A stretch of 64,000 nt of DNA from GCF_053078305.1 NZ_CP166879.1; one strand, 5' to 3'. Counted from the first letter of the stretch, positions 39,729 to 63,621 are shown. Translations and numbers: made by a program. The notes: a model not told the origin generated them from the letters alone.

Positions 39729-39737
39729 ATCCGCTAA

Positions 39738-40211: not shown

Positions 40212-40364
40212 GTAATTAACCTCCTAAAGCCTGGCGATAACACGATAATTTGCAAATCAGATATTTCCAATATCAGCATTTGTTATCAATTTATTCTGCG
40301 CTAAGGCAACTGCCTGATAAGGTGTTAAAGTTATAAAACCCTTCGCATAAAGGAGTTGTACACC

Positions 40365-41135: not shown

Positions 41136-41244
41136 GTAGGTGCTGTGTTTAGGGCGGGGAATTCAGAAAGGGATGTTTAGTATGCTGAGCGAGAGTTAAA
41201 TAATAAAAAGCTGGGAAGATTTAATAATCATCCCGGTTTTTATT

Positions 41245-41508: not shown

Positions 41509-41556
41509 AAAACCTCACATTAGTTATATAGGAGCCGCCCCGAAAACAGGGCAAGA

Positions 41557-46147: not shown

Positions 46148-46148
46148 A

Positions 46149-47177
46149 CTAGTCTTCTGCCTCATCATCAGTCTCATCATCTGACTGCCATTCAACAGAA
46201 TTAATGAGTAAATGCCATTCCTGTCCGTCGTGCCATGCTGCACCATACATTCCGGCCATTAGCATCACACCATCACCCACTGATAAATGCCCTACCGCTA
46301 CAGCTATTTCAGAAGGAAGATCCACAGGAATTAATGTATCACCATCCAGACACCATAGACCGTAATCAGATGTACACCACACTTTTCCGGCATGCCAGAC
46401 TATATCTTCGAAGGGAAGACTATAACCACCCGCAGAGACTTTTTCCCATTTATTCCCACGGCCTTTAAATAATATACCAGATTGACCACCAATGTAGACA
46501 TAACCATCCCCTGCACAACACACTGTTTCTAGATAGATGTTTGAGGGAAAATTAATTTGCTCCCATTCTGCTCCAGAAAAATGCCAGACATTTCCCTTAC
46601 CGCCGACTACATACAAATCATCATAGGAAAAACCATCTATATCTCTTAGTTTAAATTCATCGCCAAATCTACCTTTTTCTTTTGAGTAATCAAAAACCGG
46701 GAGATTCAAACAGAGTGACTGCCAGTCATTAACTCCGTCTCTGTATCCCACAGAGTTATTGTACCCAACAATATACAGTCTTCCTGAAATATTTTTAATT
46801 TTCGTTATTATATTTCTTAGAGGACCGTCAATTCCGAAAGGAATTTTTTTCTCTCTGCTATCATATTTACAACTACGGGAATAAACATATCCCTCATCAT
46901 CAACACAAACAACTTCGTCATAGCTATTATATGATGCACTACCTATATATAACTGCCCCATGTTTTTAAGTGGCTGAAGTGATATACAATCGTCTGGGCT
47001 ACCATCTAAATAGATCCCGACTTCACCTTTAGTTACTGTATTTTCATCAATAACACTTGCTTTTCGACTCTCTTTAATATTACGAACAGAAAAATGGAAA
47101 AAATCCTTATTTCTTACAGTACAATCCTTAATATACCATTTTTTAAAAATTGCAATGTTCTTATCAGTAATTTTCAT
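46149..47177 (-). CDS. Candidate immunity protein with repeated G/W-rich beta-propeller-like units
   Basis: Directly downstream of the GHH-nuclease effector; repeated ...G.....W... units; start taken at MKITDKNIAIFKKW. Confidence 0.4.
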   Translation of the reverse strand: MKITDKNIAIFKKWYIKDCTVRNKDFFHFSVRNIKESRKASVIDENTVTKGEVGIYLDGSPDDCISLQPLKNMGQLYIGSASYNSYDEVVCVDDEGYVYSRSCKYDSREKKIPFGIDGPLRNIITKIKNISGRLYIVGYNNSVGYRDGVNDWQSLCLNLPVFDYSKEKGRFGDEFKLRDIDGFSYDDLYVVGGKGNVWHFSGAEWEQINFPSNIYLETVCCAGDGYVYIGGQSGILFKGRGNKWEKVSAGGYSLPFEDIVWHAGKVWCTSDYGLWCLDGDTLIPVDLPSEIAVAVGHLSVGDGVMLMAGMYGAAWHDGQEWHLLINSVEWQSDDETDDEAED

Positions 47178-47184
47178 ATAAATA

Positions 47185-48828
47185 TTACCTCTTATTACCT
47201 GTAGGTGTTTCAGTATTCTGAGAATCAACTTCATCTTCAGTAAATGCTTTTCCAGCTACCGCTGGCATATCATCATCGCAATTCTTATAATAATTATCCA
47301 GTTGTTTTCTAAGGCAGGCTCTGCTGCATCTTGATTCCGGGAATGTTCGTTCAAATCCATCCAGGGCAATTTCTTTGGCATCTTCGTAATCAATTTTATC
47401 TTTATCGCTGAACCAGCCACTTTTCTTATAAGCTTTGATATCTTTGATCATCTCATCATGCATTTTGCCATGCGTTCCGTTTCCATTATTTGTGCCCTCT
47501 ACACAAACTGTCGGTGCCCCGCCTTTCGAATAACCACTGCAATGTCCTTTAGCCATTTCATCAGGAATAAGATGGTGGCCTGTCTGTCCGGGACAGCACC
47601 CTTTTCCAGTTTCGATACTCTTTTTGGCTCCGGTCTTATTATAATCAACGAGAAGGCATCGTCTTGCACGCGTACAGGGATTTATTCTCGCCAGCGCCCC
47701 CATTCCTGTTGCCATCATTTGAGATGGCGTCATATTTTTTAGCGTATTTTCCAGTTCAGCTTTGGCCTGTTTGACTAAAGATAAAATATCTTTTATCTCA
47801 TCTAATTTTTTATACGCTTCAATACCTAACTTGGCTGTATCATAAGCTGTACCAATTGCATCACAGACGTTCCATATTGTTGCAATTGTCTCGGTTACAA
47901 CTGCTCCAACGCCAGCAGCCGTAGCACCTATCGTACCCACGGCCCACCTTCCAGCCGCGTGTGCTGCTAGTTTTTCTGCTTTATGCAGAGCAGCAGTTTG
48001 TGCTTTATCAATAATTTCTTGTTTTAGTTGCTCAAGCATTGGCTCTATTAGTGAAGCCACTTTTTTATTAAAATCCTCCGTCAGTTCTTTCAATAATTTG
48101 TTATACTCCTCCAGGCCAAAACGTGGCTTAATCCACAAACCAGTACAATGAGAAAAAATCCATTCATTCTCCGGAGTTTTTAGTTTAGCGTATGTATTTC
48201 TGACTTTATCATCCAGCGTTTCCAGTTTCCCACCAATTTCTTTACCCATTAATTTCATGAAGTTTTTATTTTTTACATGATTCCTTCTGTTTTCCTCTTT
48301 CTTTTTTTCATCTTCATCATCATTTTTGTTATCTTCATCCGGTTTACATGCCTTCCTTATCCGATCTTCTTCCTTTTTACACTGTACAGGCATATCAAGA
48401 GTATCCTTATATGTGCCTGTAATAGTATTTCCTGGCTCCGAACCATGATTGTGCGTCATTAAATCTTCATGGCGTGCCACACACTTCCCTTCGAATTTTA
48501 CATTTGGCGACCATGATTTAAAGTAGGCTTTTCCTTTAATGACGCCGGTAATTACACCTTTGGGTTGGGATTGTGTAGCGGGTTCATCTCCGGTACTGGT
48601 TGAAAAAAAGGAAATATCTTCTTTAGCCACCATCGAATTGCATATGAATACGGTTATGGTTCCGTCCTTCATCGTTGAGGCATATGCAGTATTTGGATAA
48701 GGTACCACTATCGGGCCAGCCGGAGGAGAAGGCGGTGTCCAGCACGGATCGGGAAACACCGCTTTTGACACGCCGTCCGATGCCTTGGAGCTTGCCTCCC
48801 GGCTATTGATATAAACTTGAGTTTCCAT
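47185..48828 (-). CDS. T6SS effector: N-terminal DUF4150 (PAAR-like) domain, C-terminal HNH/EndoVII-fold GHH nuclease toxin domain
   Basis: 547 aa; N-terminal ...DPCWTPPSPPAGPIVVPYPNTAYAS...; Lys/Glu/Asp-rich linker; C-terminal CCPGQTGHHLIPDE. Confidence 0.7.
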   Translation of the reverse strand: METQVYINSREASSKASDGVSKAVFPDPCWTPPSPPAGPIVVPYPNTAYASTMKDGTITVFICNSMVAKEDISFFSTSTGDEPATQSQPKGVITGVIKGKAYFKSWSPNVKFEGKCVARHEDLMTHNHGSEPGNTITGTYKDTLDMPVQCKKEEDRIRKACKPDEDNKNDDEDEKKKEENRRNHVKNKNFMKLMGKEIGGKLETLDDKVRNTYAKLKTPENEWIFSHCTGLWIKPRFGLEEYNKLLKELTEDFNKKVASLIEPMLEQLKQEIIDKAQTAALHKAEKLAAHAAGRWAVGTIGATAAGVGAVVTETIATIWNVCDAIGTAYDTAKLGIEAYKKLDEIKDILSLVKQAKAELENTLKNMTPSQMMATGMGALARINPCTRARRCLLVDYNKTGAKKSIETGKGCCPGQTGHHLIPDEMAKGHCSGYSKGGAPTVCVEGTNNGNGTHGKMHDEMIKDIKAYKKSGWFSDKDKIDYEDAKEIALDGFERTFPESRCSRACLRKQLDNYYKNCDDDMPAVAGKAFTEDEVDSQNTETPTGNKR

Positions 48829-48995
48829 ATTAGATATTCATCTTTCTTATCGTAATTTCCCGTGGATACGGCAATCAGTATATTTATGAATTATTTATTA
48901 CCGGCATAGTTATAAATAAAATACTTAAATCAATACACAACACAAAACAACAAACCAATCTTTATGTACTTTCTTAATGAAGAAAGAAATGACTA

Positions 48996-49445
48996 TCACC
49001 TTTCTATTATGGGGAAGGTTAATCCCTTTGAAAATTTATTTCCAACATCAGACTCTTTGGTATAAATATTAGTAATCACACTTAATTTTGCACTAATTTT
49101 TATTTTTTCATTGTCTTTTCTAAAACTTTCAATCTCACTGCTTAATATAACCCAATCAAACATAACACTTTCCCCTGAATGTATTACAGTTAAGTGAGAC
49201 AATAATTCCTTGCTTGTAAGATTCGGACGGAGGTAAAATCCGTCACTCCCATTAAAATTCATTAATTTTATTGCTGGACCTGTTTTTCTTAAATACTCAA
49301 AGGGGACATAAATATCACGGCCACTATCATTCCGAAAATTAATATCAATCAACAAGTTATTTTTTTTAGTATACAAGCATTCAGAAGTTTTCGAGTTATC
49401 ACACTCAACCCAAATGGCAAAATCGTTTACACTAAGATCACTCAT
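48996..49445 (-). CDS. Candidate immunity protein for the upstream metallopeptidase effector
   Basis: 149 aa ORF immediately downstream of the effector. Confidence 0.4.
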   Translation of the reverse strand: MSDLSVNDFAIWVECDNSKTSECLYTKKNNLLIDINFRNDSGRDIYVPFEYLRKTGPAIKLMNFNGSDGFYLRPNLTSKELLSHLTVIHSGESVMFDWVILSSEIESFRKDNEKIKISAKLSVITNIYTKESDVGNKFSKGLTFPIIER

Positions 49446-49505: not shown

Positions 49506-50699
49506 CTACAGCATAACTTCACATTTCGTTGTTATATTGCGTTTAGAATTTTTCATTATATCATTAGCTTCTATAGCAATAGGCCAGCAATGTCTTTCCA
49601 GAACAATCGTGTTGTCCACTGCCGACATTATTGTTGATGAAGGGTCATTAGTAATTCCACCATCATATGGGACATTTATCTTATTATCCATTGTTCCATC
49701 TGGTTTATAGTATGCAACTGTTTCTCCACCTGCTGGATCATAAGCATATTCATCAGGTAAACCAAAGCAATGCCCGAACTCATGGGCATATATCCAATCA
49801 CGAGTTGAACCAGATACATTCATCTCGAATCCAGTAACACCTTCTCTTGGAAATTTTTTGTGAATATTCATTAAATAATGTTCGTTTGATTTTACCCATA
49901 AAATCTTAAATCGAACAGGTAGCTCAATATCTCCACAAATAGCATCTTTTAGTTTCAATTTGAATTTATTATTCCAGTATTTACTTACCCCTTTGAGCAT
50001 TTTCGCTTTTGCATTTTTTATGTTTTTTTTACTCACACCTGCACCACCCACAGTTTTAAATCTTACCGTCACTATAACTTTTCTATCTTTTATTATATTA
50101 ATATTTAATTTAAATCTTCTTTCAATGAGATAATTATGAGAAAGCCCATTAGAATCAAAGGCATCCGCATAACGCTTTGTAATGTTAACACTAACTTCTT
50201 TTTCGTAATTATCTTGCCAGCATAGCATTTTCAAGACGTTATCCCATATTCTATTCCCAACAGATATAGGCTCTGATAAATAATAGAATAAATCTGTATT
50301 TCCTGGCTGAGAACCGTGGTTGTGTGACATTAAATCTTCATGACGTGCAACGCATTTCCCTTCAAACTTTACATTTGGCGACCATGTCCTGAAGTAAGCT
50401 TTTCCTTTAATTACCCCGGTTATTACGCCTTTTGGCTGTGACTGCGTGGCTGGCTCATCTCCTGTACTGGTTGAAAAACAGGAAACATCTTCCTTTGCCA
50501 CCATCGAGTTACAAACAAATACGGTCGTTGTACCGTCTTTCAACGTTGAGGCATAGGCTGTGTTAGGATAAGGAACCACGATGGGACCCGCAGGAGGAGA
50601 TGGTGGCGTCCAGCAAGGATCAGGAAATGCAGCTTTAGATACACCATCAGATGCCTTTGAACAAGCCTCCCGGTTGTTGATATAAACACGCGTATCCAT
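49506..50699 (-). CDS. T6SS effector: N-terminal DUF4150 (PAAR-like) domain, C-terminal HExxH zinc-metallopeptidase-like toxin domain
   Basis: Start taken at MDTRVYINNRE; first about 130 aa nearly identical to the 47185..48828 effector; C-terminal YAHEFGHCFGLPDEY. Confidence 0.7.
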   Translation of the reverse strand: MDTRVYINNREACSKASDGVSKAAFPDPCWTPPSPPAGPIVVPYPNTAYASTLKDGTTTVFVCNSMVAKEDVSCFSTSTGDEPATQSQPKGVITGVIKGKAYFRTWSPNVKFEGKCVARHEDLMSHNHGSQPGNTDLFYYLSEPISVGNRIWDNVLKMLCWQDNYEKEVSVNITKRYADAFDSNGLSHNYLIERRFKLNINIIKDRKVIVTVRFKTVGGAGVSKKNIKNAKAKMLKGVSKYWNNKFKLKLKDAICGDIELPVRFKILWVKSNEHYLMNIHKKFPREGVTGFEMNVSGSTRDWIYAHEFGHCFGLPDEYAYDPAGGETVAYYKPDGTMDNKINVPYDGGITNDPSSTIMSAVDNTIVLERHCWPIAIEANDIMKNSKRNITTKCEVML

Positions 50700-50703
50700 A
50701 TTT

Positions 50704-51717
50704 TTATCCTCTGTAATACTCTGCAACCAGCGCAACCCGAAGTCCACTGTCACCACTGAAATGAACCAGTGCTCTTTCTCCCGTATCAGGGAATCGACAC
50801 ATCATTTCATTCAGATAGGCCAGTGTCAGTGGCCCGGATGCCGCCCCGGTTTCTCCCAGATTGCTGGCAAGCTGGTAATGAGGGTATTGTTTTTTTTTCT
50901 TTTCCAGACACCGGGTGATTGCCAGAGCAGTTTCACGGAAATACCATGACTCACCAGTGACACCACTAATATGAAAGTCTGTTTCTGCTAATAAAACCCC
51001 TGCATCCTGAATTGCTTTCCGGATTGCAACAGATAATCCTTTAGCCATATTAGCTTTATCATTTTGTAGGATATGAGCATCTTCGTTGCTGACACCGACA
51101 CCGGTAATACAAATGCCCTGAATACAACTATCTGGTTTACAAAACACAATAGCCCCGGCACCTTCCCCCGGAATAAAACCATCCCTGTTGCTGGTGCATA
51201 ATACGCGTTCATGAGTAAGAAGATAATTTATTCTTGCTGGTGAAAAATAACTATCCACACCGACCACAAGAGCATATGAAGCAAGTCCGGAGTATAGAAT
51301 ACGCTGAGCTTCTGTAATCGCAGAACCAATCCCTGTCTTCCCTCCCTGTATACATATAGAAGATTCATGCCAGGTTGTTTTTACTCTACTAAAAAGAAAC
51401 TCATTTCCTGATGAGCCATAACATTGCTCTGCACATTCTGATAAAAGAAAAATCAGACATGTATTTTCTTTTGTCATTCCAGGTGTTTTTAAAATACACT
51501 CAGCCACTACATTTTCAAACATCCAGAGTAGCCGCTCATCACCCCAGGTATCATTCTTATATAATTGAGCACCAATAAGTGGTTTTCCATTTAAGTCATA
51601 AAAAGTTGTTTCAGCAAAATGATCCAGACCCGAGCGAATGGCCGCTGATGCAGAAGGAACTGAATATCCTATACTGCAACACATTCCGGCTGCCGCAATA
51701 AATAATGGTGATGCCAT
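50704..51717 (-). CDS. Beta-ketoacyl synthase-like (thiolase-fold) protein with degenerate active site
   Basis: 337 aa; N-terminal PLFIAAAGMCCSIGYS and RDGFIPGEGAGAIVF resemble KAS I/II blocks; positions aligned by eye to the catalytic Cys and His are Gly/Lys and Glu. Confidence 0.5.
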   Translation of the reverse strand: MASPLFIAAAGMCCSIGYSVPSASAAIRSGLDHFAETTFYDLNGKPLIGAQLYKNDTWGDERLLWMFENVVAECILKTPGMTKENTCLIFLLSECAEQCYGSSGNEFLFSRVKTTWHESSICIQGGKTGIGSAITEAQRILYSGLASYALVVGVDSYFSPARINYLLTHERVLCTSNRDGFIPGEGAGAIVFCKPDSCIQGICITGVGVSNEDAHILQNDKANMAKGLSVAIRKAIQDAGVLLAETDFHISGVTGESWYFRETALAITRCLEKKKKQYPHYQLASNLGETGAASGPLTLAYLNEMMCRFPDTGERALVHFSGDSGLRVALVAEYYRG

Positions 51718-51722
51718 AATAA

Positions 51723-52865
51723 CTATGCTCCTGTTTCTGTTACAGGTTTATTCGTTAATTCTGGATTATTGTTTTTTTCTCCGCATCCACCGCAGGTTTC
51801 CCCTCCCCCCGCAGCTCGTTGCTGCCACCAGGTTTTACCCACAGGCCCTATAGCAACAGTGTGAATTTCCTGAATCCGTCGCTTAAGAGGTATACTTGTA
51901 CGCCAGACTACACTAAAACGCTCCTCATTGGGTTCAAAATAAAGCGTATCAACAACCGGCATTAATTCATGAGCTTCATAATCCATCGTTAAAATTCTAA
52001 CGGGCATTTGGTTTATATGAGGTAGCTGAAATTCAATGACTGAGCGTTCTTTATGCATATTTATCAACATAACTTTTTCACCACCCTGCGGATATGCGGT
52101 CTGTTGATCAGGTGGTGCGCTCTGAAAATAACGCTCATCAAAATCCTCCGGAAGAAAGGGGGAGACTTCTGCACGCCATCGTTCGTCATATGTTCCGGCA
52201 TACTGTAAACGTAACGGATGGTTTCTTGGCCGGGCGGAAAATGCTCCCGGCTCCGGATGTGATTCTGGACGTGTCACGCTATCTTGTGGTAGTTCAACCA
52301 ATGGCAGACGTGAGTTAATGAATACGGTTTCATCCCGATGATTGCCATAACCGATTCCAACAATATTGCTGGAAAATATTTCCCGATTCTCATTTCCCTG
52401 TACATCTTTCCAGACATACTCTCCACCAAAGGCATTACCATAATGTAATGAGACTGACTGTATGAACTCTGTATCAGATATAATCCAGTCTGACGTCTTT
52501 TTCTGCCAGTAGCGCGGACCAAATACCTTTAGACTCTTATCGACTTGACCTACAATTGCTCTTGATTCTGTCTGATAATTATTCCCCTCGCTTACAAAAT
52601 AAGTTGTTGCGTTAAATAAAACATCACATTTCTCTTTATACCTGACATAATCGGCCTCATATAATACAGCAGAGAATCCAGGTTCACCCACATATATGTC
52701 ACTTTCTACCAATGGCTGAGGTGGTAATAGTGGGCGAGGGCGTCGATTGTTTACGGGGATCTGATAAGTTGCTTTAATTACAACTACAAGATAATCTTTC
52801 CCATTTTTATCTGTTGCAGTGAAAACATCAGCTATCGTGTGTTTTGCAGCATTAAAAATTTCCAT
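51723..52865 (-). CDS. Putative DUF2169-family T6SS adaptor
   Basis: 380 aa ORF between vgrG and the DUF4150 effectors, the canonical position of DUF2169 adaptors; assignment is positional. Confidence 0.45.
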   Translation of the reverse strand: MEIFNAAKHTIADVFTATDKNGKDYLVVVIKATYQIPVNNRRPRPLLPPQPLVESDIYVGEPGFSAVLYEADYVRYKEKCDVLFNATTYFVSEGNNYQTESRAIVGQVDKSLKVFGPRYWQKKTSDWIISDTEFIQSVSLHYGNAFGGEYVWKDVQGNENREIFSSNIVGIGYGNHRDETVFINSRLPLVELPQDSVTRPESHPEPGAFSARPRNHPLRLQYAGTYDERWRAEVSPFLPEDFDERYFQSAPPDQQTAYPQGGEKVMLINMHKERSVIEFQLPHINQMPVRILTMDYEAHELMPVVDTLYFEPNEERFSVVWRTSIPLKRRIQEIHTVAIGPVGKTWWQQRAAGGGETCGGCGEKNNNPELTNKPVTETGA

Positions 52866-52877
52866 TTTAATATAACC

Positions 52878-53420
52878 TCAGTTTACCTGCACAGACCCAC
52901 CTTTTAACCTGTGTGTTGCCTGCGCCTGACTGTCAATATAAAGCGCGCGTATCTGAAGCAGTCCATCCGCCGATAAAACAATTTTTGACTCGCCGCACTG
53001 GAGCACTAATTCTTGTTTCGCTGTCAAAACAACTCGCTCTGTATTTAGTTCGTCTTCAGTACATTTTTTCGTCTCTGAATGATATCTTTCTGTTAAATTC
53101 TCCGGAAGTATTCCGGTCACTACCGGATGAGAATAATTGCCAGAGAGAAACTGCACAGTGCATAATCGTCCGTTATACTCCGTAGTTACAGTTCCCAGAC
53201 CCAAAGCTGCAACAGGTTTATCTTCATGAGGACACTGAATCAATATTTCTCCAGAGTCTTTGACACTGACAATTCTGCCGACAACCAACACAGGGATATC
53301 ACTGACATGCGCCTGGGATTTACTAGCCTGATGAGATAAAATATTTTCCAGCAAATGTGTTGTACTGGTCAGTTCCTCTTCTGGCTGTGGGACGTATATA
53401 TCATGCAGTTCCTTTATCAT
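52878..53420 (-). CDS. Hypothetical protein (180 aa) translationally coupled to vgrG
   Basis: Start overlaps the vgrG stop at 53420. Confidence 0.4.
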   Translation of the reverse strand: MIKELHDIYVPQPEEELTSTTHLLENILSHQASKSQAHVSDIPVLVVGRIVSVKDSGEILIQCPHEDKPVAALGLGTVTTEYNGRLCTVQFLSGNYSHPVVTGILPENLTERYHSETKKCTEDELNTERVVLTAKQELVLQCGESKIVLSADGLLQIRALYIDSQAQATHRLKGGSVQVN

Positions 53421-55408
53421 TAGTTCTCCAGAATTTTCTTCCCTTTCATATTCATATCACCATCAGCTTTATAAAACTGATCACCTGTTGTTCCCAACGA
53501 CAATTCATGTCCATTTATAGTGATGTAGCCATCTTTATCCATGCGCAAAGTACTCTTACCACATACAAACTCGATGGAATCGCCTACTGTCACTGTAAGA
53601 GTTTCCCCTACAGTAACAGACTGAGATTTATCCACAGCCTCGGTATCATTCCCTGTTACCTTACTATCCTGATCATTACCTACGCTCTTGCTACGATTGT
53701 TCGTGACAGTCAGAGATTGATCATTTCCTACGCTTACATTTTGATCGTGAGTTACAGTGACGGTCTGATCATGTCCCCCGGCATTCTCCTTACCCACCGT
53801 CACCGTCTGGCCCAGCCCAACGGTAATACTCTGGTTGTTACCGATGGTTTCGGTATGGTCCACTTTCACATCAGTAGTGCGGTTGTTCAGCACTTCCGTA
53901 TCCATGTTCTTCTGTGCATGGATATAGACCTGTTCACCGCCCGTGGCGTCTTCAAACCGCAGCTCGTTAAATCCGCTTCCTTTATAGGTCTTCGACCGTA
54001 TCGTCATCTGCGTCTTCGTCCCCGGCAGACTCCCCGGCGAACGGTTGTCCTCATGGTAGGTCCGCCCCATGATTATCGGCTGGTCCGGGTCGCCGTTCAG
54101 GAAGTCTACAATCACTTCCTGGCCGATGCGCGGTATCGCCAGGTTACCGAACCCCGGCCCCGCCCACGCCTGCGACACCCTCACCCAGCATGAACTCGCC
54201 TCCGTCATCCCGTGATAACGGTCCCAGTGAAACTTCACCCGTACCCGGCCATGTTCATCGCAGAAGATTTCCTCTCCCGCAGGCCCGGTGACAATGGCAC
54301 TCTGCGGGCCGTCCACCTTCGGTTTGCTTTGCACCCGTGGACGCCACGTCCGGTCCGCCGGTATCACCTCTAACTGATTGCCCAGCGTGGTTCCTCTCCC
54401 CTGGCTGCCGTGCAGCGCCTGCGGCTGGCTTCCTGACAGTATGCTCTGTACCACCTGCCATTCACGGTTCAGCATCTTCTGCGGATGCCCCGTCAGCGTA
54501 AACCGCGTTCCCGGCCACAGCCGCGGCGAATTACTCTGCCCTGTGGCCTTTTCCGCATCACTGCGCAGGCTGTCCATCTGGTACAACGTGAAATCCTTGC
54601 CGTGCTGTTCATCCTTGAACCTTCCCGGATAATCAAATATTTCATACTGCGCCAGCTGTCCGTTCAGGTTCTCACCCTGCTGCTCATACATCCCCGGCCA
54701 GTCCGGCACCTTAAACGTGTAATCCTGGCTCTGCACCGACGACGGGCGGACATGCGCCTCATAACGGAACATACTGACACACTCTGTCTCCGCTCCTGCC
54801 GATGTGTCCGGGTTAAACGGAAGCTCTCCCGCCTGTGACAGCCCCGCCACATCGTCGCACAGCGTCAGCTTCTGCTCCGGACTGTCCGCCGCAAACCGCT
54901 CAAAGAAGAAAATCCCCTCCTCCGCCCACAGCCGCGCCAGAAACGCCAGGTCGCTTTCCCCGTACTGCACACAGAACTCCCGCGCCGGATGGTCCTCATA
55001 AAACAGCGGCGTCCACTCCGTGACGCCGTTCTCGTTCAGTAACGTGGCCGATATCGTCCGGATATCCTGCTGCTGGAAGATACGGAAGTTCTGCCGCAGC
55101 CCACACCGCCATAACGGCGGCTGGATACACAGGTGATAACGCATCTGCCAGCCGTTATTCTCCTGCATCCCAAACCCCGCCACCACGCCGGTGACATAAC
55201 GCAGCGGGATGACGCCCTGCCAGATGGTCAGCGTCGCCTTCTTCTCCAGCAGCATCTCCGCCGTCTGCATAAAAGAGTCGCTGGCAACATCCACACTCAT
55301 CACAAACGGATATGACCCGCCCTGGATTAACCGGAAGCTCACCACTGCAAAGGTGTCCGGCTCCTGGCCGTCAACCTCCAGCGTAAAGCGCAGACCTTTT
55401 AAGGACAT
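53420..55408 (-). CDS. vgrG: T6SS spike protein VgrG (paralog 2)
   Basis: 662 aa, MSLKGLRFTLEVDGQEPDTFAVVSFRL...; gp27/gp5-like body and C-terminal beta-helix repeats (TVGxxQSxTV). Confidence 0.9.
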   Translation of the reverse strand: MSLKGLRFTLEVDGQEPDTFAVVSFRLIQGGSYPFVMSVDVASDSFMQTAEMLLEKKATLTIWQGVIPLRYVTGVVAGFGMQENNGWQMRYHLCIQPPLWRCGLRQNFRIFQQQDIRTISATLLNENGVTEWTPLFYEDHPAREFCVQYGESDLAFLARLWAEEGIFFFERFAADSPEQKLTLCDDVAGLSQAGELPFNPDTSAGAETECVSMFRYEAHVRPSSVQSQDYTFKVPDWPGMYEQQGENLNGQLAQYEIFDYPGRFKDEQHGKDFTLYQMDSLRSDAEKATGQSNSPRLWPGTRFTLTGHPQKMLNREWQVVQSILSGSQPQALHGSQGRGTTLGNQLEVIPADRTWRPRVQSKPKVDGPQSAIVTGPAGEEIFCDEHGRVRVKFHWDRYHGMTEASSCWVRVSQAWAGPGFGNLAIPRIGQEVIVDFLNGDPDQPIIMGRTYHEDNRSPGSLPGTKTQMTIRSKTYKGSGFNELRFEDATGGEQVYIHAQKNMDTEVLNNRTTDVKVDHTETIGNNQSITVGLGQTVTVGKENAGGHDQTVTVTHDQNVSVGNDQSLTVTNNRSKSVGNDQDSKVTGNDTEAVDKSQSVTVGETLTVTVGDSIEFVCGKSTLRMDKDGYITINGHELSLGTTGDQFYKADGDMNMKGKKILEN

Positions 55409-55425
55409 AATGACCTCCCTGAAAA
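53910..55425. repeat. About 1.5 kb direct repeat (vgrG 5' region plus leader), copy 2; partner at 61392-62899
   Basis: Near-identical DNA across the two vgrG 5' regions; antisense track ORFs 54485..54838 and 61959..62312 are almost identical as a result. Confidence 0.8.
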
Positions 55426-55450
55426 AATCATAAGTTTATTTTTGTATCAG

Positions 55451-55717
55451 TTAGTTATGACGTACAATAAAATGACTGGCTATCAACGTTGCTCCGCAGG
55501 TTGTTTTATCACCATCATGTGCAGCCTGTTTTCCATTAACAGAAAAACCCTGTCCAGATGCTATAATATTCGTCGTTCCATGCCCCTCTATCGGGCAGAT
55601 TACTTGGTCACCATCACAAGCTACAGGCTGACCTTCATGCAAAAAATCCGCACTGGCACTAATAACAATGCCTCCATGAGATGTTTTATCACCGAGAGTG
55701 ATTAATGATTTCATCAC
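55451..55717 (-). CDS. PAAR-domain protein
   Basis: 88 aa; ...GQPVACDGDQVICPIEGHGTT... Confidence 0.75.
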   Translation of the reverse strand: MMKSLITLGDKTSHGGIVISASADFLHEGQPVACDGDQVICPIEGHGTTNIIASGQGFSVNGKQAAHDGDKTTCGATLIASHFIVRHN

Positions 55718-55769
55718 CTTACCCTTTAATATAATGTATTATGTACGATTTTATTTTTCTGTGCATTTT

Positions 55770-56600
55770 TTAAGGTGTTAATTGCCCAGAGTTATCACCC
55801 TCATAAGATTCTTTTGGTACTGAATGTAACTGCACTTTCCCATATCGACAAACAATCCACCAGATAAAAGATGATATAATGGAGAACGGAAATATAAAAA
55901 CCACATAAAGAGGCCATAGATATACTTTCATCGTTCTTTCACCTTCATCACAAGGCCAGGAACAAAATGGCCATGGCTTATAATGCTCTATGATCTCGGC
56001 AGGCGTCAGGTAAATTTTTTTTTGGCGGAAGTCGTCCCAGTCATACTTTTCAGGTATTCGTAGGTTATCCGAACCTTTATGTATAAAATCTTTTATATAC
56101 TCAACAATAGGCATAAAATTATAATGTCCGTCAAATTCAATTTTATGCTCAACTTTCTGACCAAATCGATCATGCGAATAGAGTAATAAATAAGTTGTTT
56201 TAAGACCTCCGAGGAAATCCAAATCATTTATATTACAAATATATTCTTCATCATTCAAATAAAAATATATTCTTTTTGTTTTTCTATTTAAAACGATATC
56301 AGAATTTCGTTTTATGTTATGTATAAAGCCACGAGTCAAAAACATAAAAAACATTGGGAGTAACATCATCAGCAAGCTATCTATAAGCTTCCTAAAGATG
56401 CTAACTGAATCGGTTGTAGAAAACATATGATATATAATTATTATTGCTGCAACAGACCATGTGAATGAAAAAAAAAGCGTCATAACTCCATATGTCACGC
56501 TATCATTTACAGTAGCTGTTCTTAACGTAAGGCAATGTCGACTTAATGAAATAAACTGCAATCTCATGTCATAACAATTTACTGTTTTTTTGTTCATCAC
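55770..56600 (-). CDS. Putative membrane immunity protein for the upstream effector
   Basis: 276 aa with hydrophobic helices (VMTLFFSFTWSVAAIIIIYHMF, LLMMLLPMFFMFLT); directly downstream of the large effector. Confidence 0.4.
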   Translation of the reverse strand: MMNKKTVNCYDMRLQFISLSRHCLTLRTATVNDSVTYGVMTLFFSFTWSVAAIIIIYHMFSTTDSVSIFRKLIDSLLMMLLPMFFMFLTRGFIHNIKRNSDIVLNRKTKRIYFYLNDEEYICNINDLDFLGGLKTTYLLLYSHDRFGQKVEHKIEFDGHYNFMPIVEYIKDFIHKGSDNLRIPEKYDWDDFRQKKIYLTPAEIIEHYKPWPFCSWPCDEGERTMKVYLWPLYVVFIFPFSIISSFIWWIVCRYGKVQLHSVPKESYEGDNSGQLTP

Positions 56601-56621
56601 ATTCTCGCCATTCTTAATTAT

Positions 56622-59576
56622 TCAAAATGATGGTGGCATACTTTTATTAACCACACCCATATATTGATTAAAATCAAATTCCAGTTTATACTCACAAAGA
56701 ATAGATACATCGTTCATAAAGCCCGTGTTTGGCCTGTATCTAAAACTAAGAGCAACGTCTTCAACATGATGTTTATCCACCTGCTTGCTAAAACGAAGTA
56801 AAACCCCCCCGTTTTCTGGAAACATTCTTTCAATAGTAAAGCCACTAGTTATTTCTCTGATATCACTAACATCAGGTACAAAATCTGGAAGATAAAGAAC
56901 AAACTGTGCCGGCCCGATATAGCAAGTAGAAATGGTATCTCCAACTAATTTCCATTGAGTATAAACATCTGGATGTGTGAGATAACTTGCGAGAGTAGAG
57001 TCAACTAATATAGGTTTATAGCGAACCTTAAAATAATCAACAATAGCTTCATTAATATTTTGAAATTGTTTCATATCTTCGTCAGTGCTGTTTTCATCCC
57101 TGATAAACGCACCAAAAATAGTATGATTCACCCAACGTTCAAATGAGGTATGATTATCTTCATCAGCTTCCAGTCCTAACCATATACCAACAAGAATTAG
57201 CACTAATCCGACGACAACTATCCATCCCACAATAGGTATAGCTCCTGCTGAAAGCGCCCCAGTAACAGCACTGGGTAAAAAACTCGCAGTGACAGAAGGA
57301 AATGCAACCATTAAAGACCCCATTGCACCTGCAATTGCTGATTCAAAACGTAAACCTTTACCATCCGTATCTGATACCCACCATTTAGACAAATCAGAAA
57401 ATAAAGAAAAACCGATTGCAGCAATCCCCAAATACTTACCGAACGCTGCTGACGCAATTTTTTTTAAAATCCATCTTTTGTAATATTCACCAGCCCATAC
57501 AACTCCTTTATCAATCGAATTTCTTTTCATGAAATTTTCAACAGATACTAACAAAGCATTACACCCAGCCAAAGCGCCTGAAAGTGCAGCAATGAAATTT
57601 AATACTTTTCCACATGATATTTTATCATCTGTTATTTCTTTTTTTAGATCAACATATGCAGAAAATAAATAAATCATACCAAATAGTAATAAGCCAGCGG
57701 ATGCGGCAGTTACGCTGACAGAAGTAGATAATTTACCAGAAACTAATTTTTCGGTTGCTCTTGCACTCTGTAAATCTTGCTCCACTACTACAATCAAATC
57801 TCTTTTCCCTCGCCCACTAAAATAAGTAATTTTAGCTTTATCCAGTTCTACCATACCGCTTTCAACCAAAATCTTAAACTGACTGGTAACAGGATTACGT
57901 TCAAATAAATCATTGGTAATAGTATATCGTGCCCTTAATATACCCAATAATTGTCTAATATCCCCACCATCTGCAGCGGCATTTATCTTAGCCAATGCAG
58001 AACCTTTTAATTCAGGGCGACCTTTTATATTTTTACTTTTTAACAAATAAGCAACAATATTAGTCGTAAGAAGGTCAGTTCCAGCGGTAGCTCGCATAAA
58101 AACATCTTTCTTTGATATTTCCTGAATCACGTTATCAGCAGCCCCAAGCCATCCACCTACAGAATTTGCATCTTTTCCAAAAGGGCTATAGGCCAATAAT
58201 GCCTTATAGACAGGACTGTTTGTATCATTAAGCCAAACGTTTAATAATGCTGTTCGAGTATCTTTATCCTCGCGTCCTGGAATAGGATTACCAACACCAT
58301 TAATCATCATAGCAATAGACATTTCCAAACTATATGCTGAAATTTTTACATTTCGGTCATAAAGCATTAATGCACTGGCTACTGATAGACGGTTATTTTG
58401 ACAAGTTTCCTCTGCACTGCTTAGCCAAGCACAATGATCGATTGTAGCTAACTCTGCCTGTCGCAGCACGATTTCTGCATTCTCTTGAATGATTTTCTTT
58501 TCTTCTAAAAAAGCTAAGAATTTCTCCTGATTTATACGTTTAGCAAACCTAGCACCGCTAGCTGAACGAGCTTCATCTATTAACTCATAGAAATGACAGA
58601 CATCGCGATCGCCATCAACTAATGAAGTATCCCCTTTACTTGCACTGAGACTAATTAACGTATTGAATATGAGCTGGCATATAATATCTTCTTCATAAAA
58701 TCTCTTACTTTTAATGTGTAGTTTACTAACATCTAATCGCATAGCTTTAGGTAATATGTAATCCTCTGATTCAGATTTTATATCATTTATCTGATGTCTA
58801 TATAATTCTGCTATTGCAGATACATCAATAGCAATCCCTTCGGCATCTAGCAGGGCAATTACAGCTGGAACTTTAGGTTGATAATTTGGAAAATATGATT
58901 TTAATGATTTCAATTCATTGACATTCGAAACAAAAGGCTCTTCCTCGCTCCATCGCATATCCATTTTTTTTTCTTCAGGTTTATACTCCTCTACCCACTG
59001 TTCCAGAGCATCTATCGGAAGAATATTTTTTTGTATAGAATAATCATGGTTGCAATTAACTAACTCTGCTACATCCACAGCCTGCATAAACCGTTGGCGA
59101 GATGCCAGGTTAGATAAGAGATCATTTACCCTTGTTTGAGTCCACAGATGGGAACTATAACCAATCCATACCTCTGTTGCATCTGTTTCAATCCAGACGT
59201 TTGGCATCTGCTTACCACTTGCATAGGCATCACGCGAGTTATATTGCTCAAGATATTGAATTTGCAACTCCTGAAACAATCCATTCCCTTGATGTTCGTG
59301 TATAATTAACTTTGTATATTTTGGTGATGACAGATAAGTATAAACATATCCTACACGAAGAGCACGCAGTGTATATTTAGAGCAATTCAGCGTAGCAACA
59401 CAGGTAAACCCTTCTTCAAGATTATATTCACAACCTTCCCATGAAAATTTTTGTGAATCATCAAGACATTTAGGAATAATGCCATAGCGTATCGGAAGTA
59501 GAGGAATACGTCCTATCTCTTGTGTGCATGGTTTTGCGGATATAATATTTTCATTCGCCATAAATACACTCTCCAA
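56622..59576 (-). CDS. Large putative T6SS membrane-targeting (pore-forming, VasX-like architecture) effector
   Basis: 984 aa; C-terminal third has several long hydrophobic helices (e.g. GWIVVVGLVLILVGIWLGL); sits between an adaptor-like gene and a membrane immunity candidate. Confidence 0.45.
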   Translation of the reverse strand: MESVFMANENIISAKPCTQEIGRIPLLPIRYGIIPKCLDDSQKFSWEGCEYNLEEGFTCVATLNCSKYTLRALRVGYVYTYLSSPKYTKLIIHEHQGNGLFQELQIQYLEQYNSRDAYASGKQMPNVWIETDATEVWIGYSSHLWTQTRVNDLLSNLASRQRFMQAVDVAELVNCNHDYSIQKNILPIDALEQWVEEYKPEEKKMDMRWSEEEPFVSNVNELKSLKSYFPNYQPKVPAVIALLDAEGIAIDVSAIAELYRHQINDIKSESEDYILPKAMRLDVSKLHIKSKRFYEEDIICQLIFNTLISLSASKGDTSLVDGDRDVCHFYELIDEARSASGARFAKRINQEKFLAFLEEKKIIQENAEIVLRQAELATIDHCAWLSSAEETCQNNRLSVASALMLYDRNVKISAYSLEMSIAMMINGVGNPIPGREDKDTRTALLNVWLNDTNSPVYKALLAYSPFGKDANSVGGWLGAADNVIQEISKKDVFMRATAGTDLLTTNIVAYLLKSKNIKGRPELKGSALAKINAAADGGDIRQLLGILRARYTITNDLFERNPVTSQFKILVESGMVELDKAKITYFSGRGKRDLIVVVEQDLQSARATEKLVSGKLSTSVSVTAASAGLLLFGMIYLFSAYVDLKKEITDDKISCGKVLNFIAALSGALAGCNALLVSVENFMKRNSIDKGVVWAGEYYKRWILKKIASAAFGKYLGIAAIGFSLFSDLSKWWVSDTDGKGLRFESAIAGAMGSLMVAFPSVTASFLPSAVTGALSAGAIPIVGWIVVVGLVLILVGIWLGLEADEDNHTSFERWVNHTIFGAFIRDENSTDEDMKQFQNINEAIVDYFKVRYKPILVDSTLASYLTHPDVYTQWKLVGDTISTCYIGPAQFVLYLPDFVPDVSDIREITSGFTIERMFPENGGVLLRFSKQVDKHHVEDVALSFRYRPNTGFMNDVSILCEYKLEFDFNQYMGVVNKSMPPSF

Positions 59577-60765
59577 TCACCACCCCAACTTGCTTTTTTA
59601 TCATAGGCGAGGGGGAATTTAATTCTAATACTTCCCATGCTTGTTCCGGTGAGCTTTGACAAACCAGTAGAAAATGCTCTCGGATGTGGTACAAAGAGAG
59701 GTTGTCTTTCATAGAGGGAATAAAATTTAATACTACATCCACTGCATCACCAAAATTCTTCCCTTGGTGTTTTTGTAATGTTAGCCAATCTCTCACTAGT
59801 AACTCATTAAAATAATTGCTATTAAGAAAACTTTTTTTGGAGGTTCTTATTTTCATTATTGCATCAAGACGATTTTCTGGTGAAATAGTAACTTCAGCTA
59901 GGATTGAGCAATATAATTCTATCTGCTCATCAGATTCAGATGAATCATCCAAAAAAACACTAACTATTGTTGTTATCATGTTGTATTTATAAATACCCAG
60001 CAACCTAAATATATCATGTATTTTTTGACATTGTTCCGTTCGTCGAGTTAAAGTTTTTTTTGCATGATTTATTAACTCTTCCAATGACAACTGAAATCTA
60101 TATTCTTCCAGAATTGAAATATATTTAAGTTCTCTGTGTGTTAGTTTGAAAAACGACAAATCCTTTAAACTAGGCTTATCCACAACTTGATTATATAAGT
60201 ACCAAGAAACCTTGTTATATAAATTTTCGCACCAGATAATTGAGTTTATACTACCAAGTAAACGCTGTCTTTTACTTGCGATCAGACATCCAATAATAAG
60301 ACTTAAATTATTCGGATACCAGTTTAAATGTATGACATTTGACTTGTGAGTATAGAGTGTTGAGAATTTCGAAAGATGCCAGCAAATTTCCTTTAATGAT
60401 GAAGAACTTATAATTATCAATCCACCGTTACACTTCGCCCATTGTGAAACAAAATGCCTTACAATATCATGACTATGGCTTACATTTATTAATAGCGGTC
60501 CTTTCTCTCGTTTGTAATCATATTTGGTATCTTCCCATAACCATTGATAATAAATAAATGGCTCTATTTCTTTTAGCTGTGTCAGTAATCCGAGATTTGG
60601 TGGTATTGTATTATCATCAGGTTGTATTACCTTCCTAGTACAGCGCTCAATGTTTATAGGATGTAATAATAAGTAAATAGCATCATCATCATTTTGGATT
60701 GATTGAAGGTCAAAATCATCCGTACTTACTTTTATATTATGTCGGGCCAAAAGCGTGGCAAACAT
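59551..60765 (-). CDS. Putative T6SS adaptor/chaperone (DUF4123-like by position)
   Basis: 404 aa ORF; start overlaps the vgrG stop; vgrG-adaptor-effector-immunity order. Confidence 0.4.
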   Translation of the reverse strand: MFATLLARHNIKVSTDDFDLQSIQNDDDAIYLLLHPINIERCTRKVIQPDDNTIPPNLGLLTQLKEIEPFIYYQWLWEDTKYDYKREKGPLLINVSHSHDIVRHFVSQWAKCNGGLIIISSSSLKEICWHLSKFSTLYTHKSNVIHLNWYPNNLSLIIGCLIASKRQRLLGSINSIIWCENLYNKVSWYLYNQVVDKPSLKDLSFFKLTHRELKYISILEEYRFQLSLEELINHAKKTLTRRTEQCQKIHDIFRLLGIYKYNMITTIVSVFLDDSSESDEQIELYCSILAEVTISPENRLDAIMKIRTSKKSFLNSNYFNELLVRDWLTLQKHQGKNFGDAVDVVLNFIPSMKDNLSLYHIREHFLLVCQSSPEQAWEVLELNSPSPMIKKQVGVVIGECIYGE

Positions 60766-62882
60766 TATGATTTACCTTTATCACATGGACAATCTTCTAG
60801 TGGACAACTTCCATCCGGTTTCATAGCACACAAATCATCAAAAGGTTTACCTTCATCGGGATCAACAACAGATTGACTGATTGCAGGAGAGTCGCCAGTA
60901 CTGGCAGAGACATTACCTTTCAGGTAAATATTTCCTGCTTCAATAGTTACCCCCCCACCGTCAATGGTTATTTTCCCTCCAGGACCACGTAACACCATCC
61001 TCTGTCCAGCATCCAGCAATATTTCCGCACTCTGCTGTTTTATTCTTTCCCCCGCATCAAGAAATGATTCTCCTTTCACCTGATGATCATAACTTCCGCC
61101 AGTTTGCTGACTGTAATTTGCCGCAATTTGTTCCTTGCGGTGATTACCGACGGTTTCGATATGATCTTTACCAATCTCCACTTTATGATCTCGGGTGATA
61201 ACCAGATAGTCGTCCTGCGTGATTGCTGTACGGCGATCATGACCAATAAGCCAAGTTTCGTCATGCCCAGTAGTATGTTTTTTATCATTTGTAATTTTAA
61301 TAACTTCATCGTGACCAACCACTTCACTACGATCATTGCCTATAGTGGTTGCTTCATTGTGATTGATAACATTGATTTGATCTCTTTCGGCATGGATATA
61401 CACCTGCTCTTTGCCGGTCGCATCGTCAAATCGCAACTCGTTAAATCCGCTCCCCTTATAGGTCTTCGACCGTATCGTCATCTGCGTCTTCGTCCCCGGC
61501 AGACTCCCCGGCGAACGGTTGTCCTCATGGTATGTCCGGCCCATGATTATCGGCTGGTCCGGGTCTCCGTTCAGGAAGTCAACAATCACCTCCTGACCCA
61601 CCCGCGGTATCGCCAGGTTACCAAACCCCGGCCCCGCCCACGCCTGCGACACCCTTACCCAGCATGAACTCGCCTCCGTTGCCGGGTTATACCTGTCCCA
61701 GTGGAACTTCACCCGTACCCGGCCATGCTCGTCGCAGAAAATCTCTTCTCCCGCAGGCCCGGTGACAATGGCGCTCTGTGGCCCGTCCACCTTCGGTTTG
61801 CTTTGCACCCGTGGACGCCACGTCCGGTCCGCCGGTATCACCTCTAACTGATTTCCCAGCGTGGTTCCCTTTCCCTGGCTGCCGTGCAGCGCCTGCGGCT
61901 GGCTTCCTGACAGTATGCTCTGTACCACCTGCCATTCACGGTTCAGCATCTTCTGCGGATGCCTCGTCAGCGTAAACCGCGTTCCCGGCCACAGCCTCGG
62001 CGAATTACTCTGCCCTGTGGCCTTTTCCGCATCACTGCGCAGGCTGTCCATCTGGTACAGCGTGAAATCCTTGCCGTGCTGCTCGTCCTTGAACCTTCCC
62101 GGATAATCAAATATCTCATACTGCTCCAGCTGTCCGTTCAGGTTCTCACCCTGCTGCTCATACATCCCCGGCCAGTCCGGCACCTTAAACGTGTAATCCT
62201 GGCTCTGTACCGACGACGGGCGGACATACGCCTCATAACGGAACATACTGACACACTCTGTCTCCGCTCCTGCCGATGTGTCCGGGTTAAACGGAAGCTC
62301 TCCCGCCTGTGACAGCCCCGCCACATCGTCGCACAGCGTCAGCTTCTGCTCCGGACTGTCCGCCGCAAACCGCTCAAAGAAGAAAATTCCCTCCTCCGCC
62401 CACAGCCGCGCCAGAAACGCCAGGTCCGACTCCCCGTACTGCACACAGAACTCCCGCGCCGGATGGTCCTCATAAAACAGCGGCGTCCACTCCGTGACGC
62501 CGTTCTCGTTCAGTAACGTGGCCGATATCGTCCGGATATCCTGCTGCTGGAAGATACGGAAGTTCTGCCGCAGCCCGCACCGCCATAACGGCGGCTCAAT
62601 ACGCAGGTGATAACGCATCTGCCAGCCATTGTTCTCCTGCATGCCAAAACCCGCCACCACGCCGGTGACATAACGCAGCGGGATGACGCCCTGCCAGATG
62701 GCCAGCGTCGCCTTCTTCTCCAGCAGCATCTCCGCCGTCTGCATAAAAGAGTCGCTGGCAACATCCACACTCATCACAAACGGATATGACTGGCTCTGGA
62801 TTAACCGGAAGCTCACCACTGCAAAGGTGTCCGGCTCCTGGCCGTCAACCTCCAGCGTAAAGCGAAGACCTTTTAAGGACAT
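60765..62882 (-). CDS. vgrG: T6SS spike protein VgrG (paralog 1) with distinct C-terminal extension
   Basis: 705 aa; first about 497 aa nearly identical to the 53420..55408 paralog, then a different Cys-rich C-terminus. Confidence 0.9.
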   Translation of the reverse strand: MSLKGLRFTLEVDGQEPDTFAVVSFRLIQSQSYPFVMSVDVASDSFMQTAEMLLEKKATLAIWQGVIPLRYVTGVVAGFGMQENNGWQMRYHLRIEPPLWRCGLRQNFRIFQQQDIRTISATLLNENGVTEWTPLFYEDHPAREFCVQYGESDLAFLARLWAEEGIFFFERFAADSPEQKLTLCDDVAGLSQAGELPFNPDTSAGAETECVSMFRYEAYVRPSSVQSQDYTFKVPDWPGMYEQQGENLNGQLEQYEIFDYPGRFKDEQHGKDFTLYQMDSLRSDAEKATGQSNSPRLWPGTRFTLTRHPQKMLNREWQVVQSILSGSQPQALHGSQGKGTTLGNQLEVIPADRTWRPRVQSKPKVDGPQSAIVTGPAGEEIFCDEHGRVRVKFHWDRYNPATEASSCWVRVSQAWAGPGFGNLAIPRVGQEVIVDFLNGDPDQPIIMGRTYHEDNRSPGSLPGTKTQMTIRSKTYKGSGFNELRFDDATGKEQVYIHAERDQINVINHNEATTIGNDRSEVVGHDEVIKITNDKKHTTGHDETWLIGHDRRTAITQDDYLVITRDHKVEIGKDHIETVGNHRKEQIAANYSQQTGGSYDHQVKGESFLDAGERIKQQSAEILLDAGQRMVLRGPGGKITIDGGGVTIEAGNIYLKGNVSASTGDSPAISQSVVDPDEGKPFDDLCAMKPDGSCPLEDCPCDKGKS

Positions 62883-63102: not shown

Positions 63103-63621
63103 TTATGCTTCCAGCGGTGCACGCCAGTCATCGGCACCAGAAGTACCGGATTTGATGTGCTCCCACTCAACCTTACGGTATGCCAGTGATACTGCGAGCA
63201 ATTGCGTAAACTCACGCTGTGCAGGGTCCTGGCAGTGCGGCATGTGCAGGTTCATGTCCACAATCGTCGCGTCAGTAAGACGTGTGGTGAAGTAGTGCTC
63301 CTGCTTGCCTTCAACTGAAGTACGCCACCAGTGCAGCTCCACTTTCGGCAGCATTTCACCGGAGGCCAGCGCGTTGTACAGCAGCGGAACGGCTTTGTTC
63401 AGCGCCACGGTGAAAATGAACGGTTTGTGCGCGCGCTGCCCGGAAGGTTGACCAGACTGTGGATCGGTTGGAACAGTAACGTTATGCAGAAACTCCTGCA
63501 CCAGCATTTCATCTTCGTGTCCCTGCACGTAGATATTGCCGACAGAATCTGCGGTGAAAGCACCGGCAGTGATGTTCCCCTGGGTCTGACCTGTAATTGA
63601 AATGTAACATGGGGTTGGCAT
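63103..63621 (-). CDS. hcp: T6SS tube protein Hcp
   Basis: 172 aa, MPTPCYISITGQTQGNITAGAFTADS... Confidence 0.9.
   Translation of the reverse strand: MPTPCYISITGQTQGNITAGAFTADSVGNIYVQGHEDEMLVQEFLHNVTVPTDPQSGQPSGQRAHKPFIFTVALNKAVPLLYNALASGEMLPKVELHWWRTSVEGKQEHYFTTRLTDATIVDMNLHMPHCQDPAQREFTQLLAVSLAYRKVEWEHIKSGTSGADDWRAPLEA

Follow-up and report, generated by a model that had tools for sequence, protein, structure and literature searches.

The window analysed here, a stretch of 64,000 nucleotides from GCF_053078305.1 (NZ_CP166879.1), carries on its minus strand an hcp–vgrG island of a type VI secretion system (T6SS), and part of this island is very probably a self-contained cassette for a T6SS cargo, of the same kind as those of Tke5 and VasX (BTH_I2691). 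The open reading frames (ORFs) called in the window run, 5′ to 3′, from hcp through vgrG1, a 404-amino-acid ORF, a large ORF, an ORF in the immunity position and a PAAR gene to vgrG2 (Table 1). These ORFs are not due to chance, since they are very long for DNA of 33–37% GC and homologues of each occur in the same order in other genera. A preliminary description of the region had proposed a cassette of vgrG, adaptor, membrane effector, membrane immunity and PAAR genes resembling the VasW/VasX/TsiV2 arrangement. That reading is essentially right: all of these ORFs are present and each role is backed by homology, including the adaptor role of the 404-amino-acid protein, the immunity position of the multi-helix membrane protein and the identity of the PAAR protein. 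The likeness to VasW/VasX/TsiV2 is correct at the level of the family, although a module of Pseudomonas putida that also ends in a PAAR gene is closer (see below). The limits first drawn for the cassette, 56622–60765, take in only the adaptor and the toxin, whereas the full cassette spans ~55409–61402 together with the 5′ stretch of vgrG1 that is conserved, and the ORFs of 984 and 276 amino acids exist as described, with likely true starts that shorten the products to 979 and 275 amino acids.

The effector ties the cassette to its family most directly. It matched Pfam VasX_N at 71.2 bits (cut-off 27) over residues 22–171 and NCBIfam BTH_I2691_fam (NF041559) at 171.4 bits (cut-off 150) over the whole protein, and a phmmer search of all PDB sequences aligned its residues 3–899 with residues 3–925 of Tke5 (PDB 9r8g_A; E = 8.1e-125), leaving the last ~80 residues without a sequence alignment to Tke5 and returning no other PDB chain apart from weak antibody matches. 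In an AlphaFold2 (AF2) model built with 37 homologues (mean predicted local distance difference test, pLDDT, 75.7), the N-terminal α/β domain occupies residues 18–240, with pLDDT >90 in the MIX domain, and Foldseek found Tke5 as the only significant match of the model in the PDB (E = 7e-42), so that near full-length homology is joined by a common fold with a family member of solved structure. The MIX motifs 20-PLLPIR, 68-LRVGYVYTY and 133-IGYSSHLWT correspond to PILPVR, LRPGYVYVF and IGYSPHLWT in Tke5. Taken with the helical and β-rich regions described below, the sequence matches and the predicted model identify the protein as a member of the VasX/BTH_I2691 family; the identical protein is named ‘toxin VasX [Escherichia coli]’ by NCBI.

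Five Kyte–Doolittle segments of the effector (611–640, 652–675, 702–722, 741–770 and 775–797) coincide with long helices in the AF2 model (615–645, 650–684, 705–729, 735–761 and 774–801), and the Tke5 counterparts lie at 622–644, 663–685, 695–717, 744–766 and 781–803. The block as a whole (611–802) aligns with the 608–813 region of Tke5. Both the five hydrophobic segments and the three MIX motifs stand where they do in Tke5. The preliminary description had the C-terminal third dominated by long hydrophobic helices; the five helices are there, in an internal block (residues 611–802 of 979), and the C-terminal third is not uniformly hydrophobic because a hydrophilic, β-rich domain of ~175 amino acids follows them. 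AF2 models this C-terminal region with seven strands (869–961) and one helix (to 974) at a pLDDT of 80–90, and Foldseek returned weak matches to Ig domains only, over ~90 residues. The equivalent region of Tke5 (864–996) binds membranes and is dispensable for toxicity, and the helical region of Tke5 alone kills, by ion conduction; the Tke5 pore conducts ohmically and cation-selectively, in small steps of ~33 pS. Pore conduction, inner-membrane depolarisation and toxicity from the periplasm are known only for Tke5, VasX and Ptx2.

The 404-amino-acid protein is a predicted adaptor of the DUF4123/Tap family, in domain as in position. Its residues 31–203 match the DUF4123 protein Tap3 (PDB 9r8g_B; E = 1.9e-10), an alignment that starts at residue 31 in each protein and covers the site of the Tap3 31–50 loop, which supplies most of the contacts to Tke5. 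All three of its orthologues match Pfam DUF4123 (best E = 2.6e-8), and BLASTP against the adaptor of a Pseudomonas-like locus (L007) gave E = 2e-14, in the N-lobe only. Residues 204–404 gave no alignment to Tap3, and the C-terminal half is ~100 residues longer than that of Tap3. The gene lies between vgrG and the effector here and in four further loci (L002, L004, L007 and L008).

Direct searches of Pfam, NCBIfam and PDB sequences found no match for the 275-amino-acid protein, and its affiliation emerges through its relatives. BLASTP against the Tki5 orthologue beside a close Tke5 orthologue gave 25% identity over 292 amino acids (E = 2e-13), and hhalign of the profile of the E. coli and Hafnia immunity proteins against that of the DUF6708 proteins downstream of distant effector homologues gave a probability of 100% (E = 2.9e-42 over 272 columns); shared motifs include NIVFNRxT, HYAPWP and WPxW/Y..FP. 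A single homologue lies directly downstream of the toxin in an enterobacterial locus (L002), three stand there in tandem in Hafnia paralvei, and DUF6708 proteins follow the more distant toxin homologues of Caballeronia and of the Pseudomonas-like L007, whose toxin is ~80% identical to Tke5 as judged by eye over the N-terminal stretch of the alignment. DUF6708 is also the annotation of Tsi3a, the proposed (predicted) immunity protein of a BTH_I2691 toxin of Stenotrophomonas rhizophila, and Tki5 has been found experimentally to bind Tke5 and neutralise it in the membrane. From these comparisons, the 275-amino-acid protein is a candidate immunity protein, a divergent DUF6708/Tki5-type protein of the inner membrane.

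Hydropathy gives this protein three membrane segments, as of an integral membrane protein, and the AF2 model (pLDDT 86; predicted template-modelling score 0.80) places membrane helices at residues 28–61, 64–97 and 228–252, around a β domain (residues 101–226) of a six-strand sheet with helices. Foldseek matched the model weakly to PH/PTB/FERM-F3-like domains in the PDB (best probability 0.92, E = 0.08). Positive-inside charge counts across the family suggest that the β domain lies on the cytoplasmic side, which would be consistent, by analogy, with the in-membrane neutralisation proposed for Tki5. Since this PH-like domain is predicted to be cytoplasmic, the periplasmic part would come down to one short loop and the ~23 residues of a conserved tail. 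The predicted periplasmic exposure of the protein is thus almost nil, except for the conserved C-terminal tail VPxEAYEGDxSxRxTP.

The PAAR protein was recognised by Pfam PAAR_motif at 78.5 bits (cut-off 27), and the cassettes of L002, Hafnia, Caballeronia and P. putida likewise end in a PAAR gene. At the other end of the cassette, vgrG1 and vgrG2 are 89–99% identical in nucleotide sequence up to nt ~1480 and 21–45% identical thereafter. The cassette-specific C-terminus of VgrG1 is kept in the VgrGs of L002 and Hafnia, the latter being only 45% identical overall, and it closes with a four-cysteine tail of the pattern C-x8-C-x5-C-x-C. The VgrG C-termini of L002, L004, L007, L008, L009 and L011 have it as well, and none of the VgrGs that turned up ahead of Tke5-like cassettes was without it (6 of 6). 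It is missing in vgrG2, as it is in an E. coli VgrG followed by another kind of DUF4123 cassette. A helix-turn-helix has been published at the VgrG C-terminus for P. aeruginosa VgrG6 and VgrG14, and the paper on the Tke5 structure makes no mention of cysteine or zinc. From its distribution, the four-cysteine tail may be a candidate docking site for the adaptor in the Tke5 clade, perhaps metal-bound. A bolder, twofold proposal, that the Tke5 clade uses an undescribed four-cysteine docking knuckle between VgrG and adaptor and not a helix-turn-helix, and that DUF6708 proteins neutralise their toxins wholly in the bilayer, strikes us as rather doubtful.

The five genes form an intact, tightly coupled operon beside a T6SS core. 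The stop of vgrG1 overlaps the start of the adaptor gene, the end of the adaptor gene overlaps the effector ATG by 11 nt, and the remaining gaps (effector–immunity, immunity–PAAR and PAAR–vgrG2) measure 24, 55 and 42 nt. From the ATG at 59561, which has GGAG 9 nt upstream, the effector product begins MANENII, the same form as in the NCBI annotation, and the likely ATGs of the immunity and PAAR genes sit one codon inside GTG starts. A scan for promoters and terminators gave no useful signal, with 30 promoter-like sites against 22.6 ± 5.4 expected and terminator-like sites below expectation. The GC content of the cassette is 36%, compared with 59% for the conserved part of vgrG and 47% for the window. 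Because the near-identity of vgrG1 and vgrG2 ends at ~1,480 nt, the mobile unit can be set at ~55409–61402, or ~6 kb. A direct repeat of ~1.5 kb (53929–55408 and 61403–62882, minus strand; 59–60% GC) brackets this 6-kb, 36% GC cassette. With the vgrG repeats placed in this way, homologous recombination could exchange or remove the cassette as a whole.

The order vgrG–DUF4123–VasX_N–DUF6708-like–PAAR recurs in L002, Hafnia and Caballeronia, and the Pseudomonas-like L007 has the same gene order without a called PAAR gene. In H. paralvei (L004/L005, 10904–13696) three tandem immunity paralogues of 284, 284 and 296 amino acids, 30–36% identical to the E. coli protein, lie between toxin and PAAR. 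Within E. coli, 124 blocks of the sequence collection list a 979-amino-acid allele of the same 90%-identity cluster (P0021); in the three E. coli genomes shown (e.g. CP057673.1) the arrangement is the same and intact, with tssB/C/E/F/G divergent just upstream of hcp, a setting that, with hcp–vgrG ahead of the toxin, would favour T6SS- and VgrG-dependent export. The ‘toxin VasX’ label of NCBI is found in many E. coli assemblies, in which the adaptor and immunity genes are called ‘hypothetical protein’. Among 5,426 complete RefSeq E. coli genomes, megablast and distant blastn found neither the adaptor nor the toxin in any, and megablast of the cassette matched one genome, at the PAAR–immunity end only. 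This genome, ET350 (L001, NZ_CP100966, 12001–13321), is 99.8% identical to window positions 55400–56725 and keeps the PAAR gene, the immunity gene and the last ~34 toxin codons behind an unrelated vgrG cassette. The ET350 immunity gene is therefore an orphan with a toxin stub, and no other trace of the cassette was found in the complete RefSeq E. coli set. In the literature, our searches met with no experimental study of a Tke5/VasX family member from E. coli; published work on chaperone, effector and immunity proteins in UMN026 deals with another cassette, whose immunity protein is a lipoprotein.

Of the systems described so far, the P. putida KT2440 K3-T6SS module vgrG3-tap3-tke5-tki5-tsp5 (PDB 9R8G) is the closest; it has the identical five-gene order including a terminal PAAR gene (tsp5). 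In the two modules the MIX motifs, the hydrophobic segments (five in each) and the β-rich C-terminal domain lie at matching positions, the adaptor N-lobes are homologous and the VgrGs share the four-cysteine tail; the immunity protein of the window is related by homology to the DUF6708 neighbour of a close Tke5 orthologue. They differ in that overall sequence identity is only ~30–35%, in that Tap3 has 318 amino acids against 404 in our adaptor, whose C-terminal lobe (~200 amino acids) does not align, and in that the cassette in the window belongs to an E. coli hcp–vgrG island and is followed there by a second vgrG cassette. The V. cholerae hcp-2/vgrG-2/vasW/vasX/tsiV2 cluster has the order hcp–vgrG–DUF4123 adaptor–MIX/VasX_N toxin–immunity, and VasX, whose secretion requires the VasW adaptor, is of similar size, has C-terminal membrane helices, attacks the inner membrane from the periplasm and belongs to the same VasX_N and BTH_I2691 families. 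This satellite cluster has, as published, no PAAR gene after the immunity gene, and VasX is more distant, with a published identity of 21% between Tke5 and VasX; the link to it rests on Pfam, NCBIfam and published comparisons. The P. aeruginosa PA14 module vgrG6-tap6-ptx2-pti2 (Ptx2; PDB 9QPV) has an identity of 16% and a different MIX clade. The S. rhizophila module vgrG3-tap3-tse3-tsi3a, likened here by its published description, shares the BTH_I2691 MIX toxin, the Tap adaptor and the DUF6708 immunity protein, and has 12 further homologous immunity genes, multiplied as in Hafnia; its MIX domain is reported as clade III.

What kind of toxin the effector is, and what its neighbour does, could in principle be read in other ways. 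The preliminary description saw a colicin-like pore-former pattern, and the literature has called VasX ‘colicin-like’ and reported a short colicin-similar stretch in both VasX and Tke5. Colicins A, E1 and Ia do resemble these toxins in outline (buried helices, insertion from the periplasmic side, depolarisation of the inner membrane and an integral-membrane immunity protein), and both reach the same outcome, but colicins enter through an outer-membrane receptor and Tol/Ton import instead of T6SS delivery, and we detected no relation in sequence or fold: Pfam searches of the effector sub-regions, taken up to E = 10, brought up neither a colicin nor an enzymatic family, and Foldseek gave no colicin fold. 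We rejected a colicin relationship on these grounds, and homology of the hydrophobic region to the ten-helix channel domain of colicins A, E1 and Ia is very unlikely; ‘colicin-like’ describes a similar way of working and not a detectable relationship. An enzymatic toxin, such as a Tle-type phospholipase or another hydrolase using the hydrophobic helices as a mere membrane anchor, would fit the frequent presence of Tle lipases in E. coli vgrG–DUF4123–effector cassettes and the weak match of the adaptor to the Tle1 chaperone Tla1 (27.5 bits, cut-off 200). Yet a motif scan of the effector found no GxSxG, HxKxxxxD or HExxH motif (one chance ‘HIK’ apart), and Pfam and NCBIfam gave no enzymatic family for the whole protein or for three sub-regions, which bears out the earlier argument, made from the missing GxSxG and phospholipase D motifs, against a Tle toxin. 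A Tle phospholipase was rejected because the GxSxG (Tle1–4) and dual HxKxxxxD (Tle5) motifs are absent and no lipase family was found; given in addition the full-length homology to Tke5 and the lethal ion conduction of the Tke5 helical region, an enzymatic toxin of any kind is improbable in the extreme. That the 275-amino-acid protein is an accessory factor, for instance one handling the hydrophobic helices of the toxin in the producer, would agree with the lack of a direct match to a curated family or solved structure and with a soluble domain predicted on the cytoplasmic side, where the toxin is loaded. Its homology to the DUF6708 protein beside a close Tke5 orthologue, together with the experimental neutralisation of Tke5 by Tki5, argues instead for immunity, as do the survival of the gene in ET350 with only ~34 toxin codons, the tandem copies in Hafnia and the 12 further homologues in S. 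rhizophila, since orphan retention and multiplication are patterns typical of immunity genes; we think an accessory role highly improbable.

Several observations weigh against a working cassette of the Tke5/VasX kind. The adaptor scores 22.6 bits on Pfam DUF4123, just below the cut-off of 25.8, and the 275-amino-acid protein reaches only E = 7.5 (6.7 bits) on Pfam DUF6708, below threshold, with its closest relatives at 25.7–26.0 bits against a cut-off of 27, so that the adaptor and immunity assignments rest on PDB or profile comparisons. The predicted cytoplasmic placement of the immunity β domain is at odds with the periplasmic β-sheet contact modelled for Pti2, and AF2 confidence in the effector is low at residues 548–619 and in parts of the hydrophobic block. 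Several E. coli assemblies have a split or truncated toxin (e.g. 216 + 780 amino acids under neighbouring locus tags, or 885 amino acids), which suggests that certain lineages have undergone frameshifts and decay; a part of these cases may be contig-end artefacts. Such alleles, the rarity of the cassette among complete RefSeq E. coli genomes, its low GC relative to the window and the flanking 1.5-kb direct repeat would all suit a silent or decaying remnant carried by vgrG-repeat recombination and without current function. All five genes are intact, however, with overlapping or closely spaced junctions, and both the 979-amino-acid protein in the 124 collection blocks and the same intact arrangement in the three E. 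coli genomes speak against decay; we regard a remnant as unlikely.

For a Tke5/VasX-type cassette, homology and fold of the five parts and the gene order across genera were observed here, and the functional steps we infer from three sets of homologues (Tke5/Tap3/Tki5, VasX/VasW/TsiV2 and Ptx2/Tap6/Pti2). By this analogy the adaptor would bind the MIX domain and link the toxin to the C-terminus of VgrG1, the part specific to the cassette; the spike would be capped by the cassette's own PAAR protein, and firing of the T6SS would place the toxin in the periplasm of a neighbouring Gram-negative cell. There the Ig-like C-terminal domain would touch the inner membrane, and the buried hydrophobic helices (611–802) would unfold and insert, forming a narrow, cation-selective pore through which the membrane potential would collapse. 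The 275-amino-acid DUF6708-type protein of the inner membrane would bind the toxin at or in the membrane, shielding sister cells.

Table 1. Coordinates of the cassette, its subregions and its flanking genes in the 64,000-nucleotide window
Feature	Position	Strand	Remarks
hcp	63103-63621	-	172 aa; Pfam T6SS_HCP 113 bits; opens hcp-vgrG island
vgrG1	60765-62882	-	705 aa
vgrG1, conserved 5′ part (codons 1-~493)	61403-62882	-	TIGR03361 592 bits; GC 59%
vgrG1, cassette-specific 3′ part (residues ~494-705)	60765-61402	-	GC 42%; diverges from vgrG2
VgrG1 four-cysteine C-terminal tail (DEGKPFDDLCAMKPDGSCPLEDCPCDKGKS; end …PFDDLCAMKPDGSCPLEDCPCDKGKS)	60768-60857	-	C-x8-C-x5-C-x-C
Predicted tap-like adaptor	59551-60765	-	404 aa; DUF4123/Tap3 family; C-terminal lobe longer
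Effector, longest ORF	56622-59576	-	984 aa from upstream TTG; ORF call
Effector, likely form, Tke5/VasX (BTH_I2691) family	56622-59561	-	979 aa; ATG at 59561
Effector MIX (VasX_N) α/β domain (residues ~17-240)	58842-59513	-	Pfam, motifs, AF2
Effector hydrophobic block (residues 611-802)	57156-57731	-	presumed pore-forming region; hydropathy, AF2
Effector C-terminal β-rich (Ig-like) region (residues ~865-979)	56625-56969	-	AF2, Foldseek
Immunity candidate	55770-56600	-	276-aa ORF from GTG (ORF call); likely ATG 56597 gives 275 aa (55770-56597)
PAAR	55451-55717	-	88-aa ORF from GTG; likely ATG 55714 gives 87 aa (55451-55714); closes cassette
vgrG2	53420-55408	-	662 aa; opens next cassette; conserved 5′ 1.5 kb is the downstream cassette boundary

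Beyond the cassette, the island continues behind vgrG2 (49506–53420, minus strand) with a DUF6484 protein (180 amino acids), a DUF2169 protein (380 amino acids), a 337-amino-acid protein resembling 3-oxoacyl-ACP synthase (NCBIfam PRK06147, 213 bits, below cut-off) and a Tox-PAAR-like protein of 416 amino acids, one stretch of which weakly resembles an M6 metalloprotease; in an effector-loading position, a ketosynthase-like protein is odd. The next stretch (44912–49445, minus strand) holds a 149-amino-acid ORF, a 547-amino-acid Tox-PAAR-like protein with a nuclease domain, Tox-GHH2 (HNH/EndoVII), and two ORFs of 361 and 444 amino acids without a family, and is probably another effector with immunity candidates. 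The first 20 kb of the window (1–20000) are 99.8% identical to E. coli STEC17-190, the matched E. coli DNA carrying annotations for contact-dependent inhibition (cdiA/cdiB) and for a TOTE conflict system. An interval between these 20 kb and the T6SS island, at 37173–42414, holds fadE, ivy, a CN-hydrolase gene and the transposase of an insertion sequence (IS). With cdiA/cdiB, TOTE and the T6SS island together, the window holds several competition and defence systems.

The cassette adds little that is new to the family, being a further uncharacterised member of a well-described kind of toxin. As a horizontally moving E. coli member of a family with solved structures and electrophysiology, it is placed where its function can be predicted with confidence, and two genes still annotated as ‘hypothetical protein’ can be named, as a Tap adaptor and a Tki5/DUF6708-type immunity protein. 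The four-cysteine VgrG tail offers a lead on how this toxin clade may load onto the spike, and orphan immunity genes such as that of ET350 could be taken as a sign that an E. coli population has met the toxin before.

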